Assembly: GCA_963715655.1 (NCBI GenBank)
Contig: OY970262.1
Coordinates: 2,565,236 to 2,629,235 of the forward strand
Source: Schleiferiaceae bacterium
Lineage (GTDB): Bacteria > Bacteroidota > Bacteroidia > Flavobacteriales > Schleiferiaceae
Direction: 5' to 3'
Length of the DNA: 64,000 nt
Each line of letters opens with the position of its first letter. Position 1 is the stretch's first letter. Position numbers and translations under genes: made by a program. Positions 1,447 through 23,978 of this stretch are shown here, in pieces. A model generated the notes under the pieces. That model searched no databases and was not told the origin of the DNA. It saw nothing but the letters and a program-made list of their open reading frames with translations.

Positions 1447-1887
1447 TTAAGTGAGCCAGTAAACTTCACCGTTGTCCTGGGTGTCCATCCAATAATCTAT
1501 GTCAGGGCATTCCGAAATGCTAGTGGTAGAGACAGAGTCTGAGCCCGGCATCCGCAGCCAGTTGAAAACCCCACTGGTATCGTATTGGATAAGGAAGTTA
1601 GATTTTCTACGTGGCTCTTGAAAAACATAGGGTTCATATACAACGGTATCTGTATCAAAATGGGCTGAGTCGAGGGGTTGGTTGTAACCCGACACATATA
1701 CTAAGTTGTTCACAACCTTTAAATCAACTGCCTCTTCCCCACTCTTACTACCAAGCACTTTACTCCAGCGATGAATCGATGTCTGGCTAACGTTAAACTC
1801 CTCACACAGAGCCTTTGTAGTTTTTCCAGACTCTAACAATTCTAAAATGGTTCGTTTAAACTCTTGATCGTAATTGATTTTCCCCAT
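1447..1887 (-). pseudogene. Transposase remnant: N-terminal HTH of an IS3-like OrfA fused to a non-homologous tail
   Basis: The first ~50 aa (MGKINYDQEFKRTILELLESGKTTKALCEEFNVSQTSIHRWSKVLG) resemble an IS3-family OrfA helix-turn-helix domain. The remainder has no transposase features. No partner orfB or terminal inverted repeats were seen. Confidence 0.4.
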
Positions 1888-8233: not shown

Positions 8234-8485
8234 CTATAACTTGTGTAAAGGATGTATATTAATGAACAGAGAAAGAATGCCACTTACTACCTTTTGGTAA
8301 GTGGAATTAGGGTGAACTTCATGAGGTCTTCGAGAGAGTTCTCTAAGACCTCCATAACCTTCATTTTCAAATCGAGCTATGATTTTATAAGCCGTTGGCC
8401 TAGAAATTTCAAAGCTCCGGCAGAGTTCTGTAATGATGTAATTTCCCGTTCTCCATTCGCAGATAAATTCAATTTTTTGTTCCAT
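8234..8485 (-). pseudogene. Transposase N-terminal HTH fragment (IS481/IS3-like), truncated
   Basis: 83 aa, MEQKIEFICEWRTGNYIITELCRSFEISRPTAYKIIARFENEGYGGLRELSRRPH, resembles the N-terminal HTH of a DDE transposase. No catalytic domain follows. Confidence 0.45.
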
Positions 8486-8832
8486 AATCGTTGATTCTTT
8501 CCAAGGTACGCTAATCTGAATTTTGATTCAAATTGCAAGCTGAAAAGTGTAAACGATGTTTATATAACTATGTAAAGGATGTTTATATATCGTACCCTCC
8601 AAAAGAAAAACACAAACTCTGGGGATCAGAAAAGATGCACAAACTGTTGTATAAAATTCCCCACATTAGCCCATCCGAAATTGATAAAGAGAAGATATCA
8701 ATTTCCACCAGAGCTAATTAATTTCTACAGCTAGCGATAAAATTTAAAAATCCTCATATACAATAATTTACGATTTGGTAATTTTACCGTTTGTCGCAAT
8801 TCAAAAAAGAAAAGAAAAACTGAAATATATAT

Positions 8833-11106
8833 ATGTCATTAATAGACAAAGGACTTGAGCATGGGCACATCAAGTTTGATGAAGAAGAAAAATACATCAT
8901 CTATGTAGCTCCAGGCAAACGATACCGCTATACTGATCCCGAAGAACAAGTAAGAACTGAATCTTACTTATCCTTCATTTTCGAATATGGTTACAATCCT
9001 AAGCGCATGAGTCTTGAAGTAACTGTACCTAGAAGAACCCCTAGCGATTTAGCCGACATTGTCATTTTTGAAGATGATGATAAACTCACGCCCTACATAG
9101 TTGTAGAATGTAAAAAGCAAAAGATTTCAGAAGCAGAGTTCAACCAAGCCATTGAGCAAGGTTTCGGAAACGCTGTTTCGCTCAACGCACCTTTCATGCA
9201 GATTACATCAGGCATTAAAACAAATGCCTATGATGTCAAAAACTTTCCTCCACTCGAAAGGGTAAAGAACCTTATTGCAGATATTCCCCGATTTGGTCAA
9301 TCGGGTATTACCAAAGCAAAGTTTTACAAAGGCGCCATTGATGAAGACGGCAATCCTGCTAAAGACATTAAAGTTGTAGAGCAAAGCGACCTAACGAGAG
9401 TTTTTGAGCAAGCGCACCAAGCCCTTTGGGCAGGTGGAAAGCGGAATCCTTCCGAAGCATTTGATGAATTGGATAAACTCATTTTCTGTAAGATTTGGGA
9501 TGAACGTAAAGACCGCAAGCCAGGTCAGCCTTATGCCTTTCAAGAGTTTACAGGCGAACATCCGAACGAATTGCTTGAGAGAGTACAAGCCATTTACAGC
9601 GAAGGAAAAGAGAAAGACCCAGAAGTATTCAAAGAACCAATTCGCTTATCAGCTTCTGAACTTAAAACCATCGTGGGTTATTTATCAGAACTCAACCTCC
9701 ACGATACCGACCTTGACAGCAAAGGCCGAGCATTTGAAACTTTCTTAGGTTCATTCTTTCGTGGTGATTTTGGACAGTACTTTACGCCTCGAGAAGTGGT
9801 AGACTTTATTGTAAAAGTACTGCCCATTAATAACGATAGTTTAGTGCTTGATTCTTCTTGTGGAAGCGGTGGTTTCTTATTGTACGCCTTAGACAAGGTG
9901 AGAAAAAGAGCCGACCAGATGGCCGAAGAAGGCTATTTCAAAAAAGGCTCTACCAAGCACCGCGACTATTGGCACGATTTCGCAGAGCATAACCTCTACG
10001 GTATTGAAATTTCTGAAAGCATTGCCCGTACTGCCAAAATTAATATGATTATTCATGATGATGGCCACACCAATGTAATTGCTGTGGATGGCCTTAATCC
10101 TATTGAAGAAATTGCTCCAGTACCCAACGAAACCGAAAGAGAGAAAGAATGGCGTGAAAAGCTCAATGCCATTTCTATTCAGAAAGTTTCAGGAAACAAA
10201 GGATTTAAAGAAAACAACTTCGATTTCATCATCACCAATCCACCGTTTGGCTCTAGCATCAAACAAACCGAACAAGCCTATCTCAAAAACTACGGCTTGG
10301 GTATTAAAGATGTCAATTGGGTTGACCAACGATTAAAATCCAATTTCAAATTAGGAACACGCACCAGTCAAAGCACTGAAGTGCTTTTTATTGAGCAATG
10401 CCACCGTTTTTTAAAACCAGGCGGTGTGTTAGCAGTGGTTATTCCTGATGGTATTTTGACCAACTCAAGCTCGCAGTATGTGAGAGATTGGATTGAAGAA
10501 CACTACCGCATCATTTCTGTGGTTTCACTACCTCAAACAGCCTTCTCTGCCAATGGTGCAGGAGTTAAAAGCTCAGTTCTCTTCTTAATGAAGTTGGATG
10601 CCAAGCAAACCAAGAAAGTTCAAAACACCAAAGAGAAAATCCAAGATGATTTATTCTTTCAACCCCAATACGAAGCGGAGATTAAGCGGCTTGATAAAGA
10701 GAAAAAACGCATCATTAAAGAGCATGAAGGCTTTGACTACACCAGTATCAATTGGGAATTAGAAGACAATCTAAAAGCCTTAAATGGTGCATCTGCACCT
10801 GAGCAATATGACAAAGCCGCTCGCAAGCTCGCTGAGAAAAGCGAAGAATTTAAAGCATGGAAGTCTGACATTGGTCAACTCTACAATGAGCAGATCAATG
10901 AAGTAAAAGAAAATTTGCAAGACGAGTACCTCAAGCGCATTGGCGAAGAGCTGATAGACTATCCTATCTTAATGTTAATTGCTGAAAATATCGGTTATGA
11001 TACGGTTGGTCGTAAAACAGGGATCAATGAACTTGAGATAATTGCGCCAGAAATAGAAAGGTTTATTACTGACATTAAAACAGGGCAAGACCCTTTTTTC
11101 GTCTAA
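8833..11106 (+). CDS. Restriction-modification enzyme subunit: N-terminal HsdR_N-like PD-(D/E)xK nuclease domain fused to a gamma-class N6-adenine DNA methyltransferase
   Basis: The N-terminal region (DLADIVIFEDDDKLTPYIVVECKKQK) fits the D...ExK motif of the HsdR N-terminal nuclease family. A SAM-binding region (LDSSCGSGGFLLYA) and the catalytic NPPF motif (FDFIITNPPFGS) are present. 757 aa is larger than a canonical HsdM. Confidence 0.8.
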   Translation: MSLIDKGLEHGHIKFDEEEKYIIYVAPGKRYRYTDPEEQVRTESYLSFIFEYGYNPKRMSLEVTVPRRTPSDLADIVIFEDDDKLTPYIVVECKKQKISEAEFNQAIEQGFGNAVSLNAPFMQITSGIKTNAYDVKNFPPLERVKNLIADIPRFGQSGITKAKFYKGAIDEDGNPAKDIKVVEQSDLTRVFEQAHQALWAGGKRNPSEAFDELDKLIFCKIWDERKDRKPGQPYAFQEFTGEHPNELLERVQAIYSEGKEKDPEVFKEPIRLSASELKTIVGYLSELNLHDTDLDSKGRAFETFLGSFFRGDFGQYFTPREVVDFIVKVLPINNDSLVLDSSCGSGGFLLYALDKVRKRADQMAEEGYFKKGSTKHRDYWHDFAEHNLYGIEISESIARTAKINMIIHDDGHTNVIAVDGLNPIEEIAPVPNETEREKEWREKLNAISIQKVSGNKGFKENNFDFIITNPPFGSSIKQTEQAYLKNYGLGIKDVNWVDQRLKSNFKLGTRTSQSTEVLFIEQCHRFLKPGGVLAVVIPDGILTNSSSQYVRDWIEEHYRIISVVSLPQTAFSANGAGVKSSVLFLMKLDAKQTKKVQNTKEKIQDDLFFQPQYEAEIKRLDKEKKRIIKEHEGFDYTSINWELEDNLKALNGASAPEQYDKAARKLAEKSEEFKAWKSDIGQLYNEQINEVKENLQDEYLKRIGEELIDYPILMLIAENIGYDTVGRKTGINELEIIAPEIERFITDIKTGQDPFFV

Positions 11107-11138
11107 GCCCCGATTTAGATGAAGACAGGTTCTTCATT

Positions 11139-12584
11139 TTGAATCGGGGCGAAATCGAATTTAGATTAGACCCACTCTATTTTAGAGCACTAAAGCAAAT
11201 TGAAACTGATATTGTTGAAAAGGCAAAATATCCAGTTCACCCCGTAAGACAAGTTTGTGCTATAAAACGCGGAAAGTTTACGCATAGACCGAGAAATGAT
11301 CCAAAATTGTATGATGGCGAATATCCATTTATTCAGACAGGAGACATTGTTCGTTCAGCGACAACAGGAAATGAAATAACCTACAAGCAAACTCTTAATG
11401 AGTTGGGTAGAATGACCAGTAGATTGGCCTATCCTCCTCAGTTATTAATGACCATTGCTGCCAATATTGGGGTTACAGCCATTCTTGATTACGCATGTTG
11501 CTATCCTGATAGTATTGTCGCTATTGACCCAAAGAATCAGGGATTAAACACTTCAATAGAATACTTAGATGTTTATTTTACTTTGATTCAACCTTATGTT
11601 GAACAGCTTGCCCCTTTTGCAGCACAACGAAATTTAAACAATCAGCAACTCGGAGATATTCCTCTAATTCTGCCCGATAATACCATTCAGCAAAAAGCAA
11701 TTGATAGTTACAAAAAGGCCGTTGAAGACAAGAAAGCCAAAGAAAACCAAGCCCAAGAGCTACTCGCTTCTATTGATGACTACTTACTTACAGAGTTAAG
11801 TATCGTCCTTCCGCCTGAGCCAGAAAATGCAATTGAGAATAGGAAGTTTAGGACTAATTTTTCAAGTGTCACAGGTAACCGCTTCGACCCAAAAAGATAC
11901 AGCACAAGAACGGAGCAACTCTATGATTCAATTCACAATTCTATTTTTCCATTAAGAAGCTTAAAATCCCTTCTTATTCACACCGCATCAGGCCAATGGG
12001 GTGATGAGCCTCATGAGTCTTTTAATGAAAAGCTTTACAAGCAATGCCTTGTTATCAGATCTACAGAATTTGACAATCGATTCAATTTAAAACTTGATAA
12101 TAGCAGGGCAAAATATCGCCTTATAACTAAAACGAAACTTGATAAACTTGATCTGCAACCTTATGACATCCTAGTTGAAAAATCTGGTGGCAGTCCAGAT
12201 CAACCAGTTGGTAGAGCAGCAATTCTTCTACCTGAAATATTTGAAAACAATACGATTTGCTACAGCAACTTCATTCACAAATTCCGTGCTGATCAGTCTA
12301 TTATAGATCCTGAATACTTGTTCGCTTATCTAAAGGTGATTCATAATATCAAGTTGACAGATACTATGCAAAGTCAAACCAATGGAATTAGAAACTTGAT
12401 TATGAGAGAATATTGGAATCAAGAGATTCCTATTCCATCACCCGAAAAACAAAAAGAAATAGCTACTCAGTTTTTCAACCTTAAAAATGAAGCACAAGAA
12501 TTATTCAAAAATGCTGAGTTAGACTTTCAGCAAGCAAAAAAAGAAATTGAGCACTTAATCTTAAATCCTGCAAACAATGACTAA
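11139..12584 (+). CDS. hsdS: Restriction-modification specificity (S) subunit, HsdS-like with two target-recognition domains
   Basis: Two variable TRD-like halves are separated by conserved coiled-coil spacer repeats (LPDNTIQQKAIDSYKKAVEDKKAKENQAQELL and IPIPSPEKQKEIATQFFNLKNEAQELF). TTG start 33 nt after the upstream stop. Confidence 0.8.
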   Translation: MNRGEIEFRLDPLYFRALKQIETDIVEKAKYPVHPVRQVCAIKRGKFTHRPRNDPKLYDGEYPFIQTGDIVRSATTGNEITYKQTLNELGRMTSRLAYPPQLLMTIAANIGVTAILDYACCYPDSIVAIDPKNQGLNTSIEYLDVYFTLIQPYVEQLAPFAAQRNLNNQQLGDIPLILPDNTIQQKAIDSYKKAVEDKKAKENQAQELLASIDDYLLTELSIVLPPEPENAIENRKFRTNFSSVTGNRFDPKRYSTRTEQLYDSIHNSIFPLRSLKSLLIHTASGQWGDEPHESFNEKLYKQCLVIRSTEFDNRFNLKLDNSRAKYRLITKTKLDKLDLQPYDILVEKSGGSPDQPVGRAAILLPEIFENNTICYSNFIHKFRADQSIIDPEYLFAYLKVIHNIKLTDTMQSQTNGIRNLIMREYWNQEIPIPSPEKQKEIATQFFNLKNEAQELFKNAELDFQQAKKEIEHLILNPANND

Positions 12585-13011
12585 AACGATAATAGCCCTT
12601 TGGGGCACAGCCAATATCGGTAAATCTATGACACTAGCTCGCCTTGGCAGACAGTTACAAGCTAATGGTGCTACCACAAATGCTAACATTACAGGTGGAG
12701 ATTATCGAGCCATATTTCAGTATCAAAACAAAACTATTGGCCTTCAAACCTATGGTGATACAGAGCATTTGGTAAACCAAGGATTAACTGAGTTTCAAAA
12801 TCAGCAATGTGACATAATTGCCATTGCTTCTAAATCTTATGGAGCTACCGTTGATACTATTGGAGCATTTGCAGGTCAAAATGGCTATCGCATTATTTGG
12901 TCAAGTCCCTATGAAGTGAGAGATGGCTCCATCACTACTGATACAATTAAGAACTATGCTGCAAGCCACTTGCTTAGAATGGTTGATGATGTAATTGCAG
13001 GTATTCTATAG
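12577..13011 (+). CDS. Small P-loop NTPase/kinase-like protein (144 aa), uncharacterised
   Basis: Walker A-like motif WGTANIGKSMTL near the N-terminus and a hydrophobic-D stretch (CDIIAIAS) resembling Walker B. The ATG overlaps the hsdS stop by 8 nt (AATGACTAA), suggesting translational coupling. Confidence 0.55.
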   Translation: MTKTIIALWGTANIGKSMTLARLGRQLQANGATTNANITGGDYRAIFQYQNKTIGLQTYGDTEHLVNQGLTEFQNQQCDIIAIASKSYGATVDTIGAFAGQNGYRIIWSSPYEVRDGSITTDTIKNYAASHLLRMVDDVIAGIL

Positions 13012-13013
13012 AA

Positions 13014-13856
13014 TTGAATATAATGGGAGAGAAAACTATCACATACCAAAGGCAACTCATAGGCGTAGAAATAAAGCTTGGTTTCTTATACGTTCCGGCA
13101 CAAGCCAGAGACTTGTTGCCCAATGAAAACGGCAAAGTGCAAGTGCTACTCGAAGGAGAAAACAAACCCAAAGCAAAGAGCTACAATGCAGACTATAACC
13201 GCATTTTTGGCCTTACTCCTTTCTTCAAAAAGCACAAACTAGAAAAGGGCAATATTCTCACCGTACAGGTCAGCAATGATCTTATCAAGGTAGAGCTTGC
13301 CAAAACCACCATCATAGAAGATCAGGAAGAAAATGAGCAAGCAGATGTCATTGATATTTCAGGTTTATCATCCCAAGCCAAAGGAAACATTGCCGAAGAC
13401 CGAGTAAAAGAAATCATCTTACTCAATAGTCAAGGCTTGCTCAATGTCTATCGTCCCGTTATCGATACCAGGGGCATTGATATGATTGTATTGAAAGAAG
13501 GTTTGTTTCATTCCATTTACCTACAAGTAAAATCACGTTTTCAGGTAAAAAGCAATGGTCAATTAATACTCACCATCAGCAAGAATACTTTTAAACCACA
13601 TCACGCTCATTATTTAGTAGGCATTAGTTACGAACCTGATGTTGCAGAAATAGGTGAACATATACTCTTTATGCCTTCCAAAAAGGTAATAGAAATGGCC
13701 ACCATAGTAAAGAACAAAGGCAAAGAATATTACCGCATCAATGTTTCTTACAACAGCGCCAAAAGTGGTAAATACAAAAAGTACTTTATGAGCAAGCAAG
13801 ACTTTGTAGAAAGCCTACTCGAAAAATTTGAAGCCATGAGCGAAATGATAAAATAA
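13014..13856 (+). CDS. Putative restriction-type nuclease: N-terminal B3/EcoRII-N-like DNA-binding pseudobarrel plus C-terminal PD-(D/E)xK-like core
   Basis: The N-terminus (IGVEIKLGFLYVPAQARDLLPNENGKVQVLL ... YNRIFGLTPFFKKHKLEKGNILTVQV) has the typical B3/EcoRII-N pattern. The C-terminal half (VYRPVIDTRGIDMIVLKEG ... IYLQVKS) resembles D..(E/Q)xK nuclease strands. The start lies 3 nt after the previous stop. Confidence 0.45.
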   Translation: MNIMGEKTITYQRQLIGVEIKLGFLYVPAQARDLLPNENGKVQVLLEGENKPKAKSYNADYNRIFGLTPFFKKHKLEKGNILTVQVSNDLIKVELAKTTIIEDQEENEQADVIDISGLSSQAKGNIAEDRVKEIILLNSQGLLNVYRPVIDTRGIDMIVLKEGLFHSIYLQVKSRFQVKSNGQLILTISKNTFKPHHAHYLVGISYEPDVAEIGEHILFMPSKKVIEMATIVKNKGKEYYRINVSYNSAKSGKYKKYFMSKQDFVESLLEKFEAMSEMIK

Positions 13857-13867
13857 CCCACTTACCT

Positions 13868-15388
13868 ATGAGATTAGAAGGACTATTACAAGAATCATTA
13901 GGCGGCTTTGTCTGCATCCGTGGGTATGCCCCGCTTGGTGATTTAGCACGTATTTCAGAGTCAGACCCGGACTACCAAAGAAACCTGATTGAAGAACAAC
14001 GAGAAGAGATTGTTCACTTTTTAGAAAACAAAGAATACCTCTTCTTTCCAGAAGTAATTCTATCCTACACGCTCAAGTATGATTTTGCAACGGGTGTGTC
14101 AGGTATCAATCCATTAAGAGACATTCTTGACCGCAAGAAATTCGCTTCTAATGTTGATGGTATTCGCTTTAACTCTACAAAGTCAGGAGTTCATAAGGTA
14201 ATAGTTGACATCACAGAATCTTTCCTAAAATCAGATACACCCTTCTTTCGCATAGATGGCAACCACCGTTTGAGTGCTTCACAGGAGAAAACGGCCTTCA
14301 ACGAGTACGTTACTCCTTTTTGCTTGATTCTATTTCCTGAAGGAAATCAATCAGAAGAATACAAAAGGGTCATATTTCATAACATCAATTCAAAATCAGT
14401 TCCACTTACATCAGAAGAAAATCTAAGGCTCATTCTTGATGAAGAAAACATATTCTCTGATGAAAAGCTCAAAACCCAACCCAGTTTTGGTGTGGAGTTT
14501 TTCTTAGCACGTAAGTTGAAAGACAGCATCGATCTCCATGTTTTAAAACACATAGCTAATTCCTTTAAACAGGTAAAACACAATGGGGATGAAATAGAAA
14601 ACAAACGAACCGTTCTACTCAAACTCTTTAAGCTTCTTCTTGATAAAGAAGCTGTTGAAGGCAATGATGAAGCCATCAACATGGTGCATTCGGCTATAGT
14701 GGCAGTAAACGAACTGTATGGCAAGTATGCCAAGCTAGCCGCTTGTCATTCTCATGCCTTGTTCATTGCTTTTGTCTATTACGAGCTACACCTTGAAAAG
14801 GGGGATTATCGTGCATCATTCAAAAATTGGGTGCTGTACAACCACATGTACAATGTAGATGACATTTCACCATCCAATTTGGTTAGTGTTTACGATACCA
14901 TACTCGAATCTCGCAAGCGACACATCTTCGTTTCTATGCAATTCTCAGATGATACAAAGAATCATTACACAGCCATTAAGAATGCCATAGATCAAGTAAA
15001 CCAAAAGCATAAACTTGACCTAGAACTAAAGGAAATTAGAATAGATGAAATGAACAAAGGGTACTCCTACACCATTTCAGACGAAATACTACAGCTAATA
15101 AACAACACAGGCTTGCTTATTGCAGACCTCACGCATGGCAACAGAAATGTTTACCATGAGTTAGGCTTCCTTATGGGGCTTAATGTAGGGAGAGACTTAA
15201 AACACAACAACTTCATACTCTTAATGAAAAATGACCCCAACGGAAAAACAGATGCTGAAGTAGGGTTTAACATTAGAGACTTTCAGCAAATCAGATTCAA
15301 TGAAGCAATAGAAATAACCGCACGTTTAGTTGAGTCATTGGAGGTCTATTACAAATTAAAACCAGCAGGGAATGAAGTAGAAAACTAA
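13868..15388 (+). CDS. Two-domain protein: N-terminal ParB/Srx-fold DGQHR/DUF262-like domain and C-terminal NDT/SLOG/TIR-like Rossmannoid domain
   Basis: The N-terminus contains FFRIDGNHRLSAS (compare the DGQHR motif of DndB and DGQQR of DUF262/GmrSD). The C-terminus has HIFVSMQFSDD ... LLIADLTHGNRNVYHELGFLMG, which resembles the D-x-T...FE-x-GY signature of nucleoside 2-deoxyribosyltransferase-like/TIR-like domains. It is the last gene of the operon, 12 nt after the previous stop. Confidence 0.5.
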   Translation: MRLEGLLQESLGGFVCIRGYAPLGDLARISESDPDYQRNLIEEQREEIVHFLENKEYLFFPEVILSYTLKYDFATGVSGINPLRDILDRKKFASNVDGIRFNSTKSGVHKVIVDITESFLKSDTPFFRIDGNHRLSASQEKTAFNEYVTPFCLILFPEGNQSEEYKRVIFHNINSKSVPLTSEENLRLILDEENIFSDEKLKTQPSFGVEFFLARKLKDSIDLHVLKHIANSFKQVKHNGDEIENKRTVLLKLFKLLLDKEAVEGNDEAINMVHSAIVAVNELYGKYAKLAACHSHALFIAFVYYELHLEKGDYRASFKNWVLYNHMYNVDDISPSNLVSVYDTILESRKRHIFVSMQFSDDTKNHYTAIKNAIDQVNQKHKLDLELKEIRIDEMNKGYSYTISDEILQLINNTGLLIADLTHGNRNVYHELGFLMGLNVGRDLKHNNFILLMKNDPNGKTDAEVGFNIRDFQQIRFNEAIEITARLVESLEVYYKLKPAGNEVEN

Positions 15389-15451
15389 AAACAGCATACA
15401 ATAAAAGTAGCCCTTGCACAACCTTATAATTCTTGAGATCAGCGATTTGAA

Positions 15452-15477
15452 CGAAGCCCTTTACGGGCTTTTTTTGT
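15452..15477 (+). terminator. Rho-independent terminator closing the 8833-15388 operon
   Basis: Hairpin aagccc-tttac-gggctt followed by a run of T residues, 64 nt after the stop of 13868-15388. Confidence 0.6.
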
Positions 15478-15522
15478 TGTGTTGTAAGCTCCCCCTGTAA
15501 GCTCCCCTTTTTTAGTACGGTT

Positions 15523-16398
15523 CTAAAGTAGACTATTTTCTTTATTAGTTTCATTAATCAAAATATCCCTTGGTGCAGTGGAGCGTAGCGGAACGGAACC
15601 AAGGGATATTTTTCGGTTTTTGTTTCTATAGGCCACAGGGCTTATGCCACCCAGCGCATCGTGTGGTCGTTCATGGTTGTAATCTTCTACCCAAGATTCG
15701 GTCACTTCTCTTACTTGATCTATTGAACTAAAGAGATAAGCATCTAAAATATGCCTGCGATAGGTTTTATTAAAACGCTCTATTAGCGCATTTTGAGTAG
15801 GCTTACCGGGCTGTATATATTTAAACTCAATACCGTGCATCACGCTCCATTGAGTCGTTAATTTAGCTATAAATTCTGGACCATTATCCATACGTAGTTT
15901 TTGCGGCTTTCCGTGTTTGTTTATCAAGTGGTTTAATACCCAAATTACTCTGCTACTTTTTAAAGAATAATCTGTTTCTATAAACAGTACTTCTCGATTG
16001 TAGTCATCTATTACATTAAAGCTTCGGAACTTCCTTCCATGCTCTAAAGCATCGCTCATAAAATCAATACTCCACGTATGCGTAAAGCACTCGGGTATTA
16101 TTATGGGTTCTTTTACCCGCGCTGGTAAACGCTTTTTTACTTTCCTTCTTAATGGCAAGCCCATCTGCTTATATATCCTATGTAGCCGCTTGTGATTGAT
16201 TAATTCCTCCTTATTACGAAGACGGTAATAACTCTTCCAAAAGCCTTCGCGTGGATGTTTTATACTCAACTGCTTTAATAATAGCTCTACGCTGCTATCA
16301 TCCTTTATTGATTGATAAGCAATACTACTGCGACTAGTCTTTAATACGCGACACGCCTTGCTTATGCCGCGCGGATAAGTGCTTTTTATGCTTTCCAT
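15523..16398 (-). CDS. IS3-family transposase OrfB (DDE integrase core)
   Basis: 291 aa with an rve-like integrase core (WSIDFMSD ... DNGPEF ... [10 protein letters not shown]). Expressed by -1 frameshifting from orfA. Confidence 0.9.
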
Positions 16399-16421
16399 TA
16401 TTTCTCTCTTTTGGCAAGGCT

Positions 16422-16688
16422 TTAAAGCTTTTTTTCAATAATGTGCTTGGCGATATCTAACTCTAAAGCTAAATCGGTGTACATGCGTTTTAGCTTCGCA
16501 TTTTCTTCTTCTAGCTTCTTTATGCGCTTTAGCTCACTAGCTTCCATGCCGCCATAGCGTTGTCGCCATTTATAAAATGTTGCTTTGCTTACGCCATGCT
16601 CTCGGCTAATCGTAGCTACATCTTTGCCTTGTTCAAACTCCTTGAGAATACTGGCAATCTGGTTTGGGGTGAATTTGCTCTTTTTCAT
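16422..16688 (-). CDS. IS3-family transposase OrfA (HTH plus leucine zipper)
   Basis: 88 aa, [47 protein letters not shown] with a coiled-coil tail. The slippery heptamer A_AAA_AAG sits just before its stop. Confidence 0.9.
16428..16434 (-). promoter_or_regulatory. Programmed -1 ribosomal frameshift heptamer A_AAA_AAG of the IS3 element
   Basis: The plus strand reads ctttttt, which is AAAAAAG on the coding (minus) strand, located at the codons ...GAA AAA AAG CTT TAA at the end of orfA. Confidence 0.6.
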
Positions 16689-16789
16689 ATTTACAGTTTA
16701 AAATTAAAAATTATATTTTTAAACCGTACTAGTTTTGGGGGAGCTTACACCCCGTTTTGTAGGAATCCAAAGTAGACTATTGTAAGTGA

Positions 16790-18900
16790 GTGTTGTTATT
16801 ATATTGCAAGGGTGTGGTCAAATAATGTGATTGGTGTGTTTGTCAAAGGTTGGGAGGTATGGTTTATATGGGTAGAAAGATATATTGATAATAAAAGGAA
16901 TGGTTTAAGGTGAATTTCAAACGCAATTCGTGTTTTTGATTGCTGAAAGTATCCATGTGTTAATTGTTAAAAGGTAATCACACTGAACCTAAAACTTACA
17001 AGTAATATTGTAAGTAGGTGTTATCATGGTATTGTAGGGGTGTGTTTCACGGGTTTGATAGGTGTGGTTTAGGTGTGGTAGAAGGGTGGTTAACTGGTTT
17101 TATAGGTGTGTTTAACAAGCGGCATAGGTGTGGTTTAGGTGTGGCAGGATGATGATTATCTGATTGTATAGGTGTGTTTAACCAATAGGGGTAGGGTCTT
17201 GACATGTCTAGTAGGGGTGCAACATGTGCTTTCCAATATTTGAATTTACTAGGTGCAAGGTTTGTCCTATGGTTAAAACCTGCTTTCATTAATGAAAAAT
17301 GATTTAGAGCCATTGTGCGGGTTTGTGGAATCTGCAATTACTATTTTTAGCTGTTACACTACGTTTTAATTGGTTTTTGTGAAACTAATATGAGATGCAG
17401 GAGTCTCATGGCCATGTGTTTGTCAATTGATGAGTTCATTCATCAAGTATCTCAGTTATGTTTAGGTACGGCAGGGGGGGGTGTTTCACGGGTTATATAG
17501 GTGTGTTTAGGTGTGGCAAAAAAGTGGTTAACTGGTTTCATAGGTGTGTTCCACGGGTTGTATAGGTGTGTTTTAGGTGCGGTAGAAGGGTGGTATAACT
17601 TGCCTTATAGGTGTGTTTTAAAGGCGGCATAGGTGTGGTTTAGGTGTGGCAGCATGATGGTTATCCGTTTGCATAGGTGTGTTTAACCAATAGCGGTAAG
17701 GTCTTGACATGTCCAGAAGGGGTGCAAAATGTGCTTTCCAATATCTGAATATACTAGGAGCAAAGTTTGTCCTATGGTTAACACCTAATTTCATTAATAG
17801 AAATGATTTAGAGCCATTGTGCGGGTTTTTAGAATCAGCAATTACGATATTTTAACTGTTACAATATGCTTTAATTGGTTTTTGTAAAACTAATATGAGA
17901 TGTAGGAGTATCATGGCCATGTCTTTGTCAATTGATGAGTTCATTCATCCAGAGTCTCGGGTATATTTAGGTACGGCAGGGGTGTATTTCACGAGTAGTA
18001 TAGGTGTGTTTTAGGTGTGGTTAAAAAGTGGTTGACCGGTTGCATTGGTGTGTTCCACGGGTTGTATAAGTATGTTTTAAGTGTGGTAGAAAGGTGGTTA
18101 ACTGGTTTTACAGGTGTGTTTCACGTGTTGTATAGGTGTGTTTTAGGTGTGGTAGAAAGGTGGTTAACTGGCCTTATAGGGGTGTTTCACAAGCGCATAG
18201 GTGTGGTTTAGGTGTGGCAGCATGATGGTTATCCGTTTGCCTAGGTGTGTTTAACCAATAGCGGTAAGGTCTTGACATGTCCAGGAGGGGTGCAACATAT
18301 GCTTTCCAATATTTGAATTTACTAGGTGCAAGGTTTGTCCTATGGTTAACACCTGATTTTATTAATGAAAAATGATTTAGAGCCATTGTGCGGGTTTATG
18401 GTATTGGCTATAAGGGTTTTAAATATGGTATCTCAGTTGGTTTCAGTGAGACTTATAGGAGTGAGATAGTGTATTATGACTGTTATCTCGATTGAAAAGT
18501 CTCTTAAAGTTTCGCAAGGTGTTTAGGTATGGCAGGGTGTGTTTCACGGGTCACATGGGTGTGTTTTAAGTGTGGCAGAAAGTTGGTTAACCAGTTTGAT
18601 AGGTGTGTCTATTTTATTGTGGTAGGATTTTGCGATGATTTCTAGGGTGCAAAGAGAGTGTTCCAATAAATATATCCAATCGTTAACCTCTGGTTTTATT
18701 AATTAAAGAAGATATAAAGCCATTGTACGGGTTTGTTGAGTCTTATTTTACGGATTGGAGTTGTTAAATGCGGAACTACATCTTACTTGGTCTTAGTGAG
18801 ACTTATAGGGGTCAGATAGTGTTTTAAGGTTTTTTATTTTATCGTCTGGAGGGTGTTTCTTGAATTGCCATTGGGTGTGTTTAGGTGTGGCTGGTATGAT
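16790..18900. repeat. Array of ~500-570-bp complex tandem repeats (3 full plus about 2 degenerate copies), each containing 11-13-bp GT-rich iterons
   Basis: The anchor motif cttgacatgtc recurs at ~17199, ~17704 and ~18272. Each unit contains multiple (a)taggtgtg(g/t)ttt iterons, some spaced by 11 bp (ataggtgtggtttaggtgtggcag), a ttgaca...tatttg promoter-like segment, and a palindrome ttgatgagttcattcatcaa. Degenerate copies extend to ~18900. Confidence 0.8.
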
Positions 18901-19106
18901 GGGTAATTAAGCGTTCTAGGGATTAAAAAGATGGTGGATTTGTAGGTAAAAGGTGCTGATTTATACAGAAAGAATTTTTCTTCGTGTGGAATAGGGGGGT
19001 GTTGTTATTCAGTTAACGGGGAGCAAAGGGATGGAAGAGAATTGAATTTATAATAAAAGCCAACGAGACATCTAAATGAAACATGCTAAGGAATAAAAAT
19101 ATTCGT

Positions 19107-19188
19107 GAGGAATTGAGGAAATGAGGATTCAATCGAGAATGTTGGGAATGTTCAAATAAGTGTGTCATTTCCTCAATTCCTCATTTCC
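19107..19188. other. Long inverted repeat (~21-bp arms, ~40-nt loop) abutting the 3' end of the DUF3987 gene; terminator-like or protein-binding site
   Basis: gaggaattgaggaaatgagga ... tcatttcctcaattcctcatttcc. On the minus strand it is followed by a T-rich tract (atatttttattcc). Confidence 0.5.
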
Positions 19189-21012
19189 TTAAGCTGCTTT
19201 TGTGTAATTGTTGTGTTCGTGTATTAACTTTCCATCGGTTTTTAAAGAGTTGATATAACGTTCAGCGGTCTTCTGGTTAATTTCTAGTGCATTGGCAATT
19301 GTCAAATACCCTTGTCGGGTAAAATTATCGGGTAAATTTTTAAAGAATTGAGCCACCTTATCCGATGGTTTTTTTGGAGCAACACCTTTAAGTTTGGCAA
19401 ATATTTGAAGTGTATGTTCAAAAACTGTTTTTGCCACCTCTAATGCAATATCTACATCCTCATTACTCGGAATCAATTCGTTTTTGAAGTCACCATTATC
19501 CATCATTCTTAATACAGTTAAAATCATACAAACTCTATAAGCGAATGATGCTAATCGTCTTCCGCTTGCTGTGGTGTCTTCTCCTAACTCAGCATTAGCT
19601 CTTTCTAGTAAGATTGGGAACTCCTGATTAAATCTATCCAGTAAATAGTTAGTTTCAGTAAAATTGACCTCCCCAAGGTCGTGCAGTCGCTTTACAAAAC
19701 CACAATATCTATTTCCTAACACTTTAAAGTAATCTTCTGTGCTAACCGATTTTCTTTTCTCAAGCTTAAGGGGCGTCCATAACCTACCTATCTCAATTTG
19801 ATAAAATTGAAACCTACTAAAAAAACCATCTTGCACATTTGGTATAAGATTGGCAACCTGATTATCCGTTCCGCTTAAAAGTGTTGAGAGCTTTGGGGTA
19901 TCAATTTCGGAATATTCGCTGTTAGTGGATCTAAATGAGGTGATGGTTTCGTGTTCAAACGCCCTCCTTAACATTTCGGAGAAGTTACCCATTTCACTTT
20001 TCACTGAATTTGCTAGAGTGTCAGCTTCTGTCTCAAATAGGCATCCAATACCGTTGTTTTCAGAAAGGTTTTTTTTAAATCCAGCTGAAGTGTTGTTTGC
20101 GGGTATAAAGTGTAATTTTCTAGCAGGTTCAATCAGAGGAGCAACACCCTTATTATTAGATTCTTTAAATAGTGCTTTATCGATTTCGTACTGCGCCCAT
20201 TCTTGCTTGGTTTGCTCCAATAACATTTTGTGATATGGCATAGCTAATAATTTGCATAAGGATAATTTACCTTTTCCAGCAGATGCAGGGCCTGTTATAA
20301 ATAAGAATAGGTTTGGAAAAATCTTTCTATCGCGATAAATACCAGAAACATTAAACATCAATGAACCTAATGTAACAAGCGATCCAAGGAATAATAAATC
20401 TCGCTCTTGCTCACCTTCATGTGTTTTAAAGATATCAGTTAAGAGCGTTGGTAAATTCTCAAAAACAGCGTTTGGGATAAATGGCGGTCGTTTTTGTTTT
20501 ATTTTTAAGTTGCTTTGCATCTTATTGCTAAGTAGTTGTTTGGCATGTTCAGTATGTTTGGATGTAATAGAATTAGCGGTGCTCCTTTTTTTTGATTTTT
20601 TAGTGCTAATCTCTAAGTTAGCTTCCTTAGCGTAAGAGAATAAAGTCCCTATTGAAATTCCACCCATATTACGCTTGAGCGCTTGGTTAAATTTCGCGTC
20701 ACTTTCCTTACTATTATAAGCTGGGTGAAACTGACTGATTTTGTGAAAGTATGGCCGTCCATCTTCCTTAAATTCATCAACTAATGCAAAAGCTATATTC
20801 CGCCAACGTTCTTCCGTAGTAGTTAAATCAAGGGAGTGATGCTCAATCTGGTTTATTATTAATTCCACCTGTTCTCTAGTTGAATTGAACTTTTCATTTT
20901 TAGAAGAAAAGGCTGTTTCCGACTTTTTTAAAGTAGGTCTATCATTTTTATTAAATCTCGACTCGTTTTCTATTCGTTTTAGATACTCTTCTGGGTTGAA
21001 TTTAATTTTCAT
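19189..21012 (-). CDS. DUF3987-type P-loop (helicase-like) protein with N-terminal PriCT-2-like region; replication/mobilisation protein of Bacteroidetes mobile elements
   Basis: Walker A motif FITGPASAGKGKLS. The N-terminus (WRNIAFALVDEFKEDGRPYFHKISQF) resembles a primase C-terminal PriCT-2 domain. It sits in a typical position next to a Prim-Pol gene. Confidence 0.65.
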   Translation of the reverse strand: MKIKFNPEEYLKRIENESRFNKNDRPTLKKSETAFSSKNEKFNSTREQVELIINQIEHHSLDLTTTEERWRNIAFALVDEFKEDGRPYFHKISQFHPAYNSKESDAKFNQALKRNMGGISIGTLFSYAKEANLEISTKKSKKRSTANSITSKHTEHAKQLLSNKMQSNLKIKQKRPPFIPNAVFENLPTLLTDIFKTHEGEQERDLLFLGSLVTLGSLMFNVSGIYRDRKIFPNLFLFITGPASAGKGKLSLCKLLAMPYHKMLLEQTKQEWAQYEIDKALFKESNNKGVAPLIEPARKLHFIPANNTSAGFKKNLSENNGIGCLFETEADTLANSVKSEMGNFSEMLRRAFEHETITSFRSTNSEYSEIDTPKLSTLLSGTDNQVANLIPNVQDGFFSRFQFYQIEIGRLWTPLKLEKRKSVSTEDYFKVLGNRYCGFVKRLHDLGEVNFTETNYLLDRFNQEFPILLERANAELGEDTTASGRRLASFAYRVCMILTVLRMMDNGDFKNELIPSNEDVDIALEVAKTVFEHTLQIFAKLKGVAPKKPSDKVAQFFKNLPDNFTRQGYLTIANALEINQKTAERYINSLKTDGKLIHEHNNYTKAA

Positions 21013-21040: not shown

Positions 21041-21958
21041 TTAGTGATTAAGATATTTTGGATTTATATAGACTTCAGGATCGTGGCATAAAAAACAAGC
21101 TCTAGACACATCTTTCCCAGAGGGATCGGCTTCTAAACTGAAATTTTGTTTTAGAAAAATGGAAACTGCTTGAAAGTACTTCTCATGGGTTACCTCTTTT
21201 GTCAACTCAATTGGAATAATCCATTTAAGACCATTTCCTGAAGGAGATTTAAACAGTAGTTCGGTTTCAAATTCCTCAATCCCTAACAGTGTAGCACGTG
21301 TTTCAGATACGTTTGGTAAGTCATCAAAATCTATAGTTAAAAGGTTTGAATGGTGGATTAAACCAGCATTAGATCGTGTACTAAATAAACCGGAGAAAGT
21401 AACATAGTCCAACCCCGTTGATTTAAATTTAGAGGCTTGATTTTTCAAACTAAATGCTCTGAGCTTTCTAGTTACATCAGGGTATTTATTTCCTTTAATA
21501 AGCTCATACACCTGAAGGGTGTTAAGGGTGCTTTTTGGGGTGGTATTATGGATGGGAGCGTTATAGTAACTAAACAGCGGCATTGCTTCTCCCTTTAGTG
21601 TAGGTGGTGATAAGTTGGGTGCTACCTCTAGTATTTCAGTAAGAGGAATTCTTAAGTTCATTTCATCGTTAAGAATATTAGATAATGCATTTTCGTTATC
21701 ACCATAGTGCAGTTTAGCAAAATCAAAACAGTTACCTGCTGCAATGGAATTATCCGTATCGGAGTGCATTGCCACATTATCTACTATTTTAATTTTCAGA
21801 GATTTTTTACCATAATTAAATGGATTTCTTGTAGGCTCACAGATGGTGCCATTTAACTTTAGGACTGTTTCACACGGGTAGTACTTCCTGAGTACATGTC
21901 CATAAATATTTAACCCGTAATATGTCTGTTTTAAAATAGCGGTATTAATTTGGTTCAT
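21041..21958 (-). CDS. Primase-polymerase (AEP/BT4734-like Prim-Pol) domain protein
   Basis: The C-terminal region (LTIDFDDLPNV ... FKSPSGNGLKWIIPI ... SGKDVSRACFLCHDPEV) resembles the acidic and SxxGxGxH motifs of bifunctional primase-polymerase domains. Co-oriented and adjacent to the DUF3987 gene. Confidence 0.5.
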   Translation of the reverse strand: MNQINTAILKQTYYGLNIYGHVLRKYYPCETVLKLNGTICEPTRNPFNYGKKSLKIKIVDNVAMHSDTDNSIAAGNCFDFAKLHYGDNENALSNILNDEMNLRIPLTEILEVAPNLSPPTLKGEAMPLFSYYNAPIHNTTPKSTLNTLQVYELIKGNKYPDVTRKLRAFSLKNQASKFKSTGLDYVTFSGLFSTRSNAGLIHHSNLLTIDFDDLPNVSETRATLLGIEEFETELLFKSPSGNGLKWIIPIELTKEVTHEKYFQAVSIFLKQNFSLEADPSGKDVSRACFLCHDPEVYINPKYLNH

Positions 21959-21969
21959 AGGTAGAGGTT

Positions 21970-22239
21970 TTAAAGGTTACTGTTTTGTTGACTTTGGTCT
22001 AACATTTCATCGATATCCTTTTGACGATAGAATATTTTACCTTGAACTTTGGAAAACTTAATAGTTCCATTTTCCCTCCACGAGGCGAGGGTTCGTTGAG
22101 AAACATTTAGAAGTTTCATCAAACTAGAATTGTCGTAAATCTTACTAGGAGATTTATTTGACTTAATGTACTCGAAAATCGAATCGAGTTGCTGCTGATA
22201 ACGGGTGTACTCTTCTTTAGGTACTGCTGAAAAATTCAT
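21970..22239 (-). CDS. Excisionase-like HTH DNA-binding protein (Bacteroidetes mobile-element Xis/HTH_17 type)
   Basis: 89 aa with LMKLLNVSQRTLASWRENGTIKFSKVQGKIFYRQKDIDEML, a typical MerR/excisionase-like HTH found upstream of Prim-Pol/DUF3987 genes in Bacteroidetes integrative elements. Confidence 0.65.
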   Translation of the reverse strand: MNFSAVPKEEYTRYQQQLDSIFEYIKSNKSPSKIYDNSSLMKLLNVSQRTLASWRENGTIKFSKVQGKIFYRQKDIDEMLDQSQQNSNL

Positions 22240-22349: not shown

Positions 22350-23585
22350 TTACAATTTTTTAAAAATCTCCAAAATTGTTTCCAACTCAGATCTAATTGG
22401 GCTTAGTCGGATTGTATTGTATTTAAGTTCTTGCATGTTTCCCCTATGATCTTTAAATCGAAAATTACTTGCGAAAAAAAGTACCGCCTCCTTTTGATGT
22501 TCAAAAATGTTTAAACCGTAAAATAACCTTATCAAAAGAGCGGCCTGCTTAATAGTCAAGCTTGTATTTCTAGCAGAATTAGAATTTTGAATATTTAATT
22601 CAAGCAGTCTATAAAAGACTGCAGCAGCTTTAATTCGGCAAAAATTGTTGATTTCGAAGAAATTACTTGAAGTGCTTAGCATGTTTGGATAGCTTGACTC
22701 TTCATATTTTAAAAGTTTTGGTAAATCAACTTCTGAAGTAGACAATTGGGAAAAGTATTTCTGTTTATGAACTGTAAACAAATCCTTTTGAACTTGTATA
22801 GGATTAAGATTATTTTGAATAGCTCTTTCACGACTATCAAAAAATTCTTTTTCATACCGTTCAATCAGGAATTTCACCAAGTTGGAAATATCAAAGTTCG
22901 CTTTGTAAATTGCATGTATAGGAAAGTAAACGAAGTTATCTTCATGTAAATTTAAAATCTCAACTATTGCATCCTTTGGACGCATTTCAACGATGGCTTT
23001 TAATTTTTCTAAAAATGGAAATATTCTCTGTTTAACCCAAAAATCATCAAAATTTGAAACGCTATAATTCATAAGCTGTTTCTTAAAGAAAGCTATGTTA
23101 GATTTTTCATTAAAAAGAAATGGTAAGGTTCTAATTACCTGTTTATCTATGTAGTGACTACCAAAAACGTCCCCCTGGCTATTGTAAGATTCTTGAGTGA
23201 AATTATTGTTACCACCTTTTCTCATTACATCTGCCGCAAAAACGGAAAGTAGAATAGGGTAGTCCCTATCTATCCAAGGGGTCATTCCTAAATGCACAGG
23301 CCAAACAAACCTATTGCTTGAATCATTAACCATTCCTGTAATGGTCGGATTATTATGGAGAGTGTTATTTATCTCCCAGTTTTGTAAAGATTTTAGCAAC
23401 AGAGACTTTAAACCTGTGAAATCATCAATTTTGAAACTAGTAAGATTCAATGTCCTGAGATCTTCAACGCAATTTGTGAAGTTGAAATGATTTCGGATTG
23501 CCGTATTAATATCGTCCACAAAATAGGTAAGATTATGTTTTTCAATCAATTCGTCCAGCACTGTGTCAAGCGTTTTATCATTCAT
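22350..23585 (-). CDS. Hypothetical protein (411 aa) leading the Xis/Prim-Pol/DUF3987 gene string
   Basis: Long uninterrupted ORF co-oriented with the downstream mobile-element genes. No recognisable motif. Confidence 0.45.
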   Translation of the reverse strand: MNDKTLDTVLDELIEKHNLTYFVDDINTAIRNHFNFTNCVEDLRTLNLTSFKIDDFTGLKSLLLKSLQNWEINNTLHNNPTITGMVNDSSNRFVWPVHLGMTPWIDRDYPILLSVFAADVMRKGGNNNFTQESYNSQGDVFGSHYIDKQVIRTLPFLFNEKSNIAFFKKQLMNYSVSNFDDFWVKQRIFPFLEKLKAIVEMRPKDAIVEILNLHEDNFVYFPIHAIYKANFDISNLVKFLIERYEKEFFDSRERAIQNNLNPIQVQKDLFTVHKQKYFSQLSTSEVDLPKLLKYEESSYPNMLSTSSNFFEINNFCRIKAAAVFYRLLELNIQNSNSARNTSLTIKQAALLIRLFYGLNIFEHQKEAVLFFASNFRFKDHRGNMQELKYNTIRLSPIRSELETILEIFKKL

Positions 23586-23794
23586 AGTGGTAATTTAATG
23601 CAGCTAATGTATTAAACGATGCAAATCAATGTTTTTGAGTACTTTTGACCTTTATAGAATTTAGAAACGTAGGATTTAGGTGGCAATTTTTGTGGCATTC
23701 CATATTTAGAAAATGCAACGTATTGTCAAGTAAACGTTTACAAAATATTTTTCGGTTCCGTCCGGACCGCTATTTATTTAGTAAATAAATGCAA

Positions 23795-23831
23795 AAGCCT
23801 GAAAGTCAAACGATTTTCAGGCTTTTTTTTG
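23795..23831 (+). terminator. Hairpin plus poly-T terminator-like structure in an orphan position (no upstream plus-strand gene)
   Basis: agcctgaaa-gtcaaacga-ttttcaggct followed by tttttttt. It is immediately preceded by the perfect palindromes atttatttagtaaataaat and gtccggac. Confidence 0.4.
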
Positions 23832-23978
23832 TTCCATTAGGTAAAAAGAAGTAATAAAATACACCTCTTTTAAAGCAATTCAGAAGCATTGATTTTAAGT
23901 AATACCGAAATGAAATTTGCTAGATTAAATTGTAAAATATCCAAAAATGTGGTATCCTGCAACTTGATTTAATAAACT

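Follow-up and report, generated by a model that had tools for sequence, protein, structure and literature searches.

A non-coding, GT-rich repeat array lies at positions 16778-18895 on the + strand of a 64,000-nucleotide stretch of the genome of a Schleiferiaceae bacterium (Bacteroidota; assembly GCA_963715655.1, contig OY970262.1, positions 2,565,236 to 2,629,235 of the forward strand). The whole stretch is hereafter called the window, and all coordinates refer to it. On the left the array is bounded by an insertion sequence (IS) of the IS3 family (15496-16750, - strand), and on the right it is followed by the 3' end of a - strand gene string for a primase and a DUF3987 helicase. A preliminary description of this DNA, made from the letters and a list of open reading frames (ORFs), had regarded the array as an iteron-type or multimerised origin of an integrated replicon. 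The analysis reported here indicates that this assignment was probably misplaced: a different, family-conserved element at the end of the helicase gene appears to be the better origin candidate, and the array itself may be a lineage-specific accessory element.

Architecture and site conservation of the GT-rich array

Based on Tandem Repeats Finder (TRF), a repeat finder and direct reading of the sequence from 16400 to 19400, the array was resolved into a hierarchical repeat, G-rich on one strand, in which 11-mers make up a 66-bp sub-repeat and the sub-repeats in turn belong to units of 355-568 bp. It contains ~36 TAGGTGTGKTT-type sites, every one of them on the + strand. Self-alignment of the periods upheld the complex tandem array of the preliminary description but corrected its map of 500-570-bp units. 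Units P1 (17187-17691), P2 (17692-18259) and P3 (18260-18614) measure 505, 568 and 355 bp, respectively; according to the period alignment, the recognisable part of P0 (16778-17186) consists of an iteron block only, and P4 (18615-18905) is decayed. All five units read on the + strand. The identical sequence was also present in a short-read assembly (locus L001), where it is broken inside the array.

A unit runs from block A (~140 bp) through block B (~140 bp) into an iteron block made of 66-bp sub-repeats. The first copy of block A (cttgacatgtc ... gagccattgtgcgggttt) lies at 17187-17330 and copies 2-4 at 17692-17834, 18260-18403 and 18615-18740, all on the + strand. These copies are 74-93% identical pairwise, a divergence too large for a very recent duplication. 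A conserved 18-mer of block A, RAGCCATTGTRCGGGTTT, occurs 4 times against 0.19 expected, and short islands such as GCCATTGTRCGGGTTT persist even in unit P4 (74-81% identity). Block B, with its first copy at 17331-17475 (+) and copies 2-4 at 17835-17978, 18404-18533 and 18741-18871, falls into two subtypes, one in P1/P2 and the other in P3/P4, and carries no promoter, stable RNA fold or unusual A+T content.

When the iteron blocks were laid out in 11-bp register, the 66-bp sub-repeat was found to consist of six 11-mers in the order TAGGTGTGTTT / CACGGGTTGTA / TAGGTGTGTTT / TAGGTGTGGTA / GAAAGGTGGTT / AACTGGTTTTA, three of which are strong sites and three linkers. Iteron blocks 1 and 2 are located at 17024-17186 and 17476-17691; block 3 (17979-18259), with ~4.1 copies of the sub-repeat, is the longest, and block 4 (18534-18614) is short. 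A terminal iteron pair (TGGGTGTGTTTAGGTGTGGCTGG, 18872-18895), recognised by a GGTGTG scan and the register layout, stands at the right end; like the four blocks, it reads on the + strand. The distance from the last iteron (~18895) to the stop codon of the helicase gene (19189-19191) is ~295 bp, more than twice the 130 bp that had been given for it.

The sites are strictly polar and strictly phased. On the + strand of the whole window, 31 of the 37 GGTGTG hexamers fall in the array, and none is found there on the - strand. With a position weight matrix (PWM) built from 25 strong sites and a threshold of at least 9 bits, 36 of the 42 + strand hits were located inside the array, again with none on its - strand. 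For core distances of up to 140 bp, all 77 pairs were spaced by 0 or +/-1 modulo 11 (53 by exactly 0), and the G content showed a sharp Fourier peak at 11 bp. The claim of iteron-like direct repeats in helical register is borne out by this single polarity and these spacings.

Strong sites are also better preserved than the sequence between them. Among ten 66-bp copies, the strong 11-mers diverged from the consensus by 9.7% and the linker 11-mers by 21.2% (Fisher p=6e-5, an optimistic value in that the test counts related copies as independent), which is not what uniform neutral decay predicts. This difference bears on the view that the array is a functionless, decaying higher-order repeat, in which an 11-bp slippage repeat grew by unequal crossing-over to 22, 66 and ~500 bp in a junk-tolerant, mobile-element-rich gap between convergent operons. 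Nesting of 11, 66 and ~500 bp is a product of unequal crossing-over; units P0 and P4 at its ends have decayed, and unit lengths are unequal; the array has been found in one genome only, in none of 80 related loci and with no match in the collections searched (see below); it lies beside the IS3 element and IS debris, in a gap bounded by the terminators of two operons that converge on it; and it shows no signal of a promoter, of an A+T-rich DNA unwinding element (DUE) or of DnaA boxes. On the other hand, strong 11-mers are twice as conserved as linkers, block A islands such as GCCATTGTRCGGGTTT have survived in P4, and a 2-kb tandem array of 75-93% identity should recombine away fast unless retained. 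We consider neutral decay a serious but, on balance, unlikely explanation.

The array does not encode protein. A 96-aa (amino acid) ORF on its minus strand found only itself among 5.8 billion proteins, in agreement with the preliminary assessment of the minus-strand ORFs as artefacts. A coding small ORF in block A was likewise rejected: a 32-aa reading frame is intact in P1-P3 but broken in P4. The Rfam scan of the array gave no match, fold z-scores were ordinary (-0.6 to +0.7), predicted structures differed between units, and there was essentially no covariation among them. The array had been distinguished from CRISPR, and rightly, as it has no unique spacers and is flanked by a convergent gene end and an IS. 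Given the absence of Rfam matches and spacers in the array, its ordinary folds and its negligible covariation, structured non-coding RNA, CRISPR and type III antitoxin repeats were all rejected.

Nor did the units prove to carry promoters. No TAnnTTTG box of the Bacteroidetes type is present on either strand of the array, and sigma-70-like matches are at chance level (9 versus 8.3 expected). In the ttgaca...tatttg element, which had been taken as promoter-like, 33 nt separate the boxes; P2 carries a mutated second box, and P4 lacks the block. With no consensus found, a promoter per unit was rejected. The hairpin ttgatga-gttcat-tcatcaa, previously reported as perfect in each unit, is indeed perfect in P1 (17427-17446) but imperfect in P2 and absent from P3/P4, and its fold is not unusual (z=-0.46).

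A role at the level of nucleic acid structure was considered in view of the strand asymmetry. The GC skew is +0.3 to +0.6 over 16.7-19.1 kb (~2.3 kb), and the region 16760-19100 contains 14 two-tetrad (G2-type) quadruplex motifs on the + strand, compared with 5.1 +/- 1.9 in composition-matched shuffles, and 0 on the - strand. The double iteron GGTGTGGTTTAGGTGTGG, which we take to resemble the thrombin-binding aptamer, recurs four times. The G-rich strand, either as displaced DNA or as a transcript towards the origin, might fold into two-tetrad G-quadruplexes or engage in R-loops, and these could prime replication or regulate it. The units could also be unstructured RNA genes or protein sponges. 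However, no promoter consensus was found on either strand, the Rfam, folding and covariation results given above speak against such a role, two-tetrad quadruplexes are weak, and the strict 11-bp register suits recognition of duplex DNA better. Such a structural role seems to us very improbable.

The primase-helicase module and its origin-like element

An intact module of an archaeo-eukaryotic primase (AEP) and an AAA+ helicase adjoins the array, and its DUF3987, Prim-Pol and Xis-like (HTH_17) genes are as the preliminary description had listed them. The helicase gene (19189-21012, - strand) encodes a 607-aa protein with the Pfam domains PriCT_2 and DUF3987 (AAA+ helicase). In an AlphaFold2 (AF2) model based on a 25-sequence alignment (pLDDT, the predicted local distance difference test score, 77.5), the AAA+ core was nearest to MCM, RuvB, ComM and AAV Rep40. 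C-terminal residues 549-607 were modelled as three helices followed by a beta hairpin at pLDDT 84-91, that is, as a predicted winged helix. A winged helix in DUF3987 proteins has been predicted by Kazlauskas et al. (PMC5862659), and the helicase model agrees with that prediction.

Upstream of the helicase gene and on the same strand, the string continues with three genes. The product of the first (21041-21958), 305 aa long, has a BT4734-like AEP domain of the Prim-Pol primase type (domain scan; PMC5862659) and also gave a weak NCBIfam match to Prim-Pol. The second (21970-22239), ~3 kb from the array, encodes a small DNA-binding protein of 89 aa (HTH_17, Xis/MerR-like; PF12728, E=2.4e-9), a candidate array binder. 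At the head of the string is a 411-aa orphan (22350-23585) with no Pfam or NCBIfam match and with four remote relatives of 408-438 aa, all unannotated. Its identification as an integrase or a divergent DUF6617 protein was rejected on the lack of such matches and an hhalign probability of 0.2. The notion of an integrated replicon was not borne out: the gene upstream of the module is not an integrase, and the nearest integrase lies at 44-1102.

A profile scan of 185,579 species genomes yielded 80 related loci with 33-40% identity to the helicase, the nearest relative being 40% identical. The relatives inspected are islands beside mnmE, in which genes for HTH_17, integrase, DUF6617, HTH_17, BT4734-like and DUF3987 proteins are followed by a short gap, an XRE regulator and restriction-modification cargo. 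The relatives have an integrase, and the module in the window is without one. In both loci inspected in detail (L045 and L089), the island is situated directly downstream of mnmE (trmE), which suggests a family-specific integration site. Upstream of their HTH_17-integrase genes, some relatives (L055:2918-3009, L033:2900-3019 and L065:2628-2688) carry (A)TTTGTTGCC as 4-6 direct repeats spaced by 11-31 bp, which probably represent arm-type or Xis sites at the end of the island.

At the 3' end of the helicase gene, we found a family-conserved origin-like element (19086-19191) that consists of 3-4 AGGAA, a 40-bp spacer and 3-4 TTCCT and overlaps the stop codon. The inverted repeat of its arms (19106-19124 and 19165-19183) is perfect over 19 bp and encloses a 40-nt loop (fold z=-5.8). 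The element sits between the helicase gene and the GT array, ~190-295 bp from the latter. In the relatives, 3-6 AGGA(A/T) pentamers, mostly 9 bp apart, occupy the last ~60 bp of the helicase ORF or the sequence just after it, and 3-6 TCCT follow in the opposite orientation, the motif taking the form (T)GAGGA(A/T)/TCCT. The two sets are separated by a median of 7 bp (range 5-174).

AGGA was present on average 2.8 times in the last 150 bp of the helicase gene, compared with 0.9 times per 150 bp of gene, and TCCT 3.0 times in the first 150 bp downstream, compared with 0.6 times per 150 bp of gene. Runs of at least 3 AGGA followed by at least 3 TCCT were found at 47 of the 79 loci analysed (78 relatives and the window) and in 0/79 control regions, and 279 of the 293 spacings were 9 bp. 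Across whole 15-kb loci, AGGA/TCCT runs are essentially confined to the helicase 3' end and an internal site ~1.33 kb upstream of the stop codon.

This internal site lies in the linker between PriCT_2 and DUF3987 (for example, in L003, L006 and L045) and shows TCCT three times at 9-bp spacing (GATTCCTTGTTTCCTGAACTTCCTGAG) at ~21 loci, with AGGA runs in the same 250-bp bin at ~7 loci. The internal TCCT run may represent either an additional binding site or a repeat in the coding sequence.

The arms of the relatives share the motif but not the spacers or full complementarity, which argues for binding-site repeats rather than a simple hairpin. One locus (L007:8888-9214) has the same architecture with another motif, ACTCCGTTT, repeated six times at a 9-bp period and, 214 bp away, five times in inverse orientation; L076 also combines a variant motif with the same architecture. 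The L007 variant suggests co-evolution of iteron and winged helix. In the literature searched, we found no paper describing the AGGA/TCCT signature of DUF3987-helicase islands.

The layout resembles that of known origins next to primase-helicase genes. In Staphylococcus aureus pathogenicity islands (SaPIs), the origin lies directly 3' of rep and contains short iterons in opposed directions that are bound by the winged helix of Rep (PMC9371898). As in SaPIs and other phage-inducible chromosomal islands (PICIs; pri - rep - ori), a primase gene is followed in the window by a helicase gene with a predicted C-terminal winged helix and then, directly 3', by a non-coding cis element; its pentamer iterons (19086-19191) are arranged in two opposed sets around a spacer, and it overlaps the stop codon. 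The helicase differs in being a DUF3987 protein rather than a member of the SaPI Rep families, the host belongs to the Bacteroidota, and there was no sign of a helper phage or of packaging genes. The origin of plasmid pRN1 is a stem-loop of ~100 nt (21-nt stem, 58-nt loop) 3' of a gene encoding primpol, superfamily 3 (SF3) helicase and winged-helix domains (PMC4234260). Here too it is the stem-loop at 19106-19183 (19-bp stem, 40-nt loop), directly downstream of the replication gene, that is comparable, and not the array; pRN1 has no adjacent iteron super-array, and the arms in the Bacteroidota family share a motif rather than full complementarity.

In view of its family conservation, SaPI-type layout and likeness to the pRN1 stem-loop, the stem-loop at 19086-19191 appears to be a better origin candidate for the primase-helicase module than the GT array. 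The AGGA/TCCT signature provides a testable origin candidate for the whole island family and could serve in annotation. It is a more solid and reusable result than the array, and it is independent of it.

The array, by comparison, had no counterpart. The preliminary description had proposed a search for the same unit beside DUF3987/Prim-Pol genes of other Bacteroidetes genomes and plasmids. Neither the GT array nor a comparable phased array was present at any of the 80 related loci. The relatives were examined in three ways: by intergenic length and top k-mers, by approximate 10-mer families against a coding control, and by a whole-locus scan in 400-bp windows. Downstream of the helicase gene, the median number of approximate 10-mer families was 3, the same as in the coding control, and the few whole-locus repeat hits were coding repeats or origin-type repeats. 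No match to the array was found among plasmids and phages by blastn, nor to the double iteron or the block A 18-mer among viral contigs in exact-pattern scans. A single scan of metagenomes with the 20-mer double iteron returned six loci, all of them chance matches or simple 11-bp repeats at 46-60% GC, and profile searches (nhmmer) with block A/B and with the 66-mer were negative for 88 loci and for the remainder of the window.

These results bear directly on the proposal that the array is an iteron-type or multimerised origin of a primase-helicase replicon, with the winged helix of the helicase or another initiator acting on the GT iterons. Direct repeats in one orientation at 11/22-bp spacing are a hallmark of iteron plasmid origins, and the array has them. 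It also lies 3' of a helicase gene whose product has a predicted C-terminal winged helix, and one GT-type site begins within the stem-loop spacer. The last of these, at 19157 (TAAGTGTGTCA), is a moderate site (9.5 of 19.3 bits) that runs into the right arm; noticed post hoc and with a probability of ~0.6% by chance, it hints weakly at a functional link.

Against these points, the helicase gene and the array are separated by another element, origin-like and conserved in the family, and positional conservation of the kind expected of a SaPI-type origin was found for the AGGA/TCCT element (47/79 loci) rather than for the array (0/80). Whereas SaPI origins contain opposed iterons (PMC9371898), the array consists of 11-bp sites in a single orientation, ~36 of them over 2.1 kb, and begins beyond the SaPI-like element, ~295 bp from the stop codon. 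In Pfam and NCBIfam scans of the submitted neighbouring proteins encoded between 8833 and 25421, no initiator of the Rep_3/TrfA/pi type (WH1-WH2) was found. No DUE was apparent in the array units, blocks A and B having the same A+T content as the adjacent sequence (60-66% in both cases). A DnaA-box cluster was rejected, box counts being at chance: there is one 1-mismatch box in the array, and the window total is 18 versus 18.06 expected. Homology of the left flank of the array to the origin-proximal region was rejected as well (alignment score 23 versus 21 +/- 2.8 for shuffles). An origin function of the array itself, as originally proposed, is rather improbable on this evidence, but the array could still serve replication as an accessory element.

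A putative protein-binding platform

We tentatively favour, at somewhat less than even confidence, the reading that the array is a lineage-specific accessory cis element, a putative protein-binding platform that controls or assists the adjacent origin. Many phased 11-bp sites that run in the same direction and are better kept than their linkers are the signature of a platform for cooperative head-to-tail binding. In the mechanism that we propose, the ~36 amplified sites would be recognised by one sequence-specific DNA-binding protein, with the same polarity, on the same face of the helix and with 3 strong sites per 66 bp. A small winged-helix protein would polymerise on them cooperatively, head to tail, and the filament would wrap or stiffen several hundred bp per block. 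The best candidate for the binder is the element's own 89-aa HTH_17 protein (Xis/RdfS/BldC-type); the C-terminal winged helix of the helicase and the 411-aa orphan are alternative candidates. The array would act in cis on the stem-loop origin by sequestering or delivering a regulator, which could control copy number or firing in the manner of P1 incA or P4 crr; alternatively, it might serve as a centromere-like handle.

The array shares one-orientation direct repeats and 11/22-bp phasing with iteron plasmid origins and accessory arrays (R6K, RK2, P1 oriR/incA, F incC and P4 ori/crr). Iteron clusters outside a minimal origin could titrate or 'handcuff' their protein, and P4 crr adjoins a primase-helicase gene. 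Iteron-like arrays next to replication genes are familiar. What sets the present one apart is its size, its hierarchy of three levels and its motif, which is unlike that of the neighbouring origin-like element. It differs from the plasmid origins in its larger scale and in its ~500-bp higher-order unit with the non-iteron blocks A and B, besides having no DUE or DnaA-box enrichment and no Rep_3/TrfA/pi initiator among the scanned neighbours.

Closer parallels in geometry are found among proteins with a winged helix-turn-helix (wHTH). Sites of recombination directionality factors (RDFs) are direct repeats one helical turn apart (PMC7498355), and in BldC, a MerR-like wHTH protein that binds direct repeats in head-to-tail fashion, each protomer takes up one DNA turn (PMC11963761). 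The wHTH proteins 186 Apl, P2 Cox, RdfS and BldC bind direct repeats one turn apart, head to tail, and form extended filaments (PMC7498355, PMC3936717, PMC11963761). The array has direct repeats at the same one-turn interval, and the gene string beside it encodes the HTH_17 protein. In contrast, the known targets comprise 2-10 sites at attachment (att) arms or promoters; the array has ~36, with no att site, integrase or promoter found nearby, and its binding is a prediction.

The type II centromere parC of plasmid R1 provides another comparison. Its ParR protein recognises direct iterons in two sets of five, two iterons being contained in a 22-bp fragment (PMC4949242). Both parC and the array consist of contiguous clusters of direct repeats that are G/T-rich on one strand, and those of parC are bound cooperatively. 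The array is more than 10 times larger, however, and no ParR/ParM or ParA/ParB homologue was found among the scanned neighbouring proteins.

Several points weigh against the platform. Protein binding, the identity of the binder and its bearing on replication or maintenance are inferred from the anatomy of the array. None of the 80 related loci has the array, although most of the inspected ones carry HTH_17 genes, and the array must therefore be dispensable for the module. It is a single occurrence in one genome, and no related array turned up in any search that might have served for comparison. The known sites of RDFs, of BldC or in parC number 2-10, compared with ~36 here. The GT motif TAGGTGTGKTT differs from the origin-like (T)GAGGAA, whereas P4 crr and P1 incA reuse the iteron of their origin. 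An Xis-type role has no obvious partner, there being no integrase or att site nearby. The single-sequence AF2 model of the HTH_17 protein, all-helical and judged unreliable, was uninformative, and gene conversion could mimic the selection suggested by the conservation of strong sites.

The likeness to RDF sites also admits an origin of the array in recombination: it could be a leftover of accreted or duplicated att-arm regions, with arm-type sites for an integrase since lost and with Xis sites. Relatives have 4-6 direct repeats (ATTTGTTGCC) upstream of their HTH_17-integrase genes, RDF sites are direct repeats one turn apart (PMC7498355), and the module in the window has no integrase of the kind that its relatives possess. 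The array motif is, however, unrelated to those ATTTGTTGCC repeats, and the array is on the helicase/cargo side of the module, not on the integrase side. No integrase or att repeat was found near the array, nor any repeat common to it and the sequence beyond the 411-aa gene; the units contain no gene remnants, and 36 sites are far above the number in any att arm. The chance that the array arose as recombination leftovers appears very slim.

A bolder version of the platform deserves mention, improbable as we judge it to be. The array would be a 2-kb, ~36-site 'super-iteron' scaffold of a chromosomal island, on which polymerisation of an island-encoded winged-helix protein switches the neighbouring SaPI-like origin on or off, or else a decoy that titrates a protein of a phage or competing element. 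If true, it would represent a new control of copy number or immunity by binding-site amplification in the Bacteroidota. Should the array prove to be a working platform of any kind, it would be among the largest phased iteron-type arrays on a bacterial chromosome and would provide an entry to the replication control of the abundant, unstudied DUF3987/BT4734 defence-carrying islands of this phylum.

Genes and elements around the array

The IS3-family element that bounds the array on the left contains orfA (16422-16688) and orfB (15523-16398). In the region 15483-16781, its left end carries an extra tandem copy of the terminal 13-mer TGTAAGCTCCCCC. The ~30 bp just outside its right end (16751-16781) resemble the inside of its own left end and are probably the debris of a second IS.

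To the left of the IS lies a defence-type operon (8833-15388, + strand), convergent with the helicase string and possibly MADS-like. It encodes a Type I-like methylase with HsdR_N (PADLOC MTase_I, also mad2), a specificity subunit (also mad5), a small AAA protein, a 280-aa protein without assignment and a 506-aa protein with a weak DGQHR/GmrSD_N match, and it ends in a terminator hairpin at ~15440-15470. At 8244-8589, shortly before the start of the methylase gene, TGTAAAGGATGTTTAT(ATA) is present in three copies, two of them 23 bp apart; they possibly form an operator.

At the far left of the window, ~21 kb from the module, is a tyrosine integrase gene (Phage_int_SAM_5 and Phage_integrase domains; 44-1102, + strand), with a transposase HTH (helix-turn-helix) fragment at 1447-1887 (- strand) and, next, two proteins sorted by the type IX secretion system (T9SS). 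No tRNA gene was found in the window. An exact-protein look-up of the neighbouring transporter, aimed at an empty site, found nothing.

On the other side of the module, a 390-bp gap separates the 411-aa gene from a sodium:solute symporter gene. It contains a strong terminator-like hairpin at 23726-23836 on the + strand (aaaagcctgaaa...tttcaggcttttttt). This hairpin gave weak, sub-threshold Rfam matches to BTnc005 and MicC and could be a small RNA or the boundary of the island.

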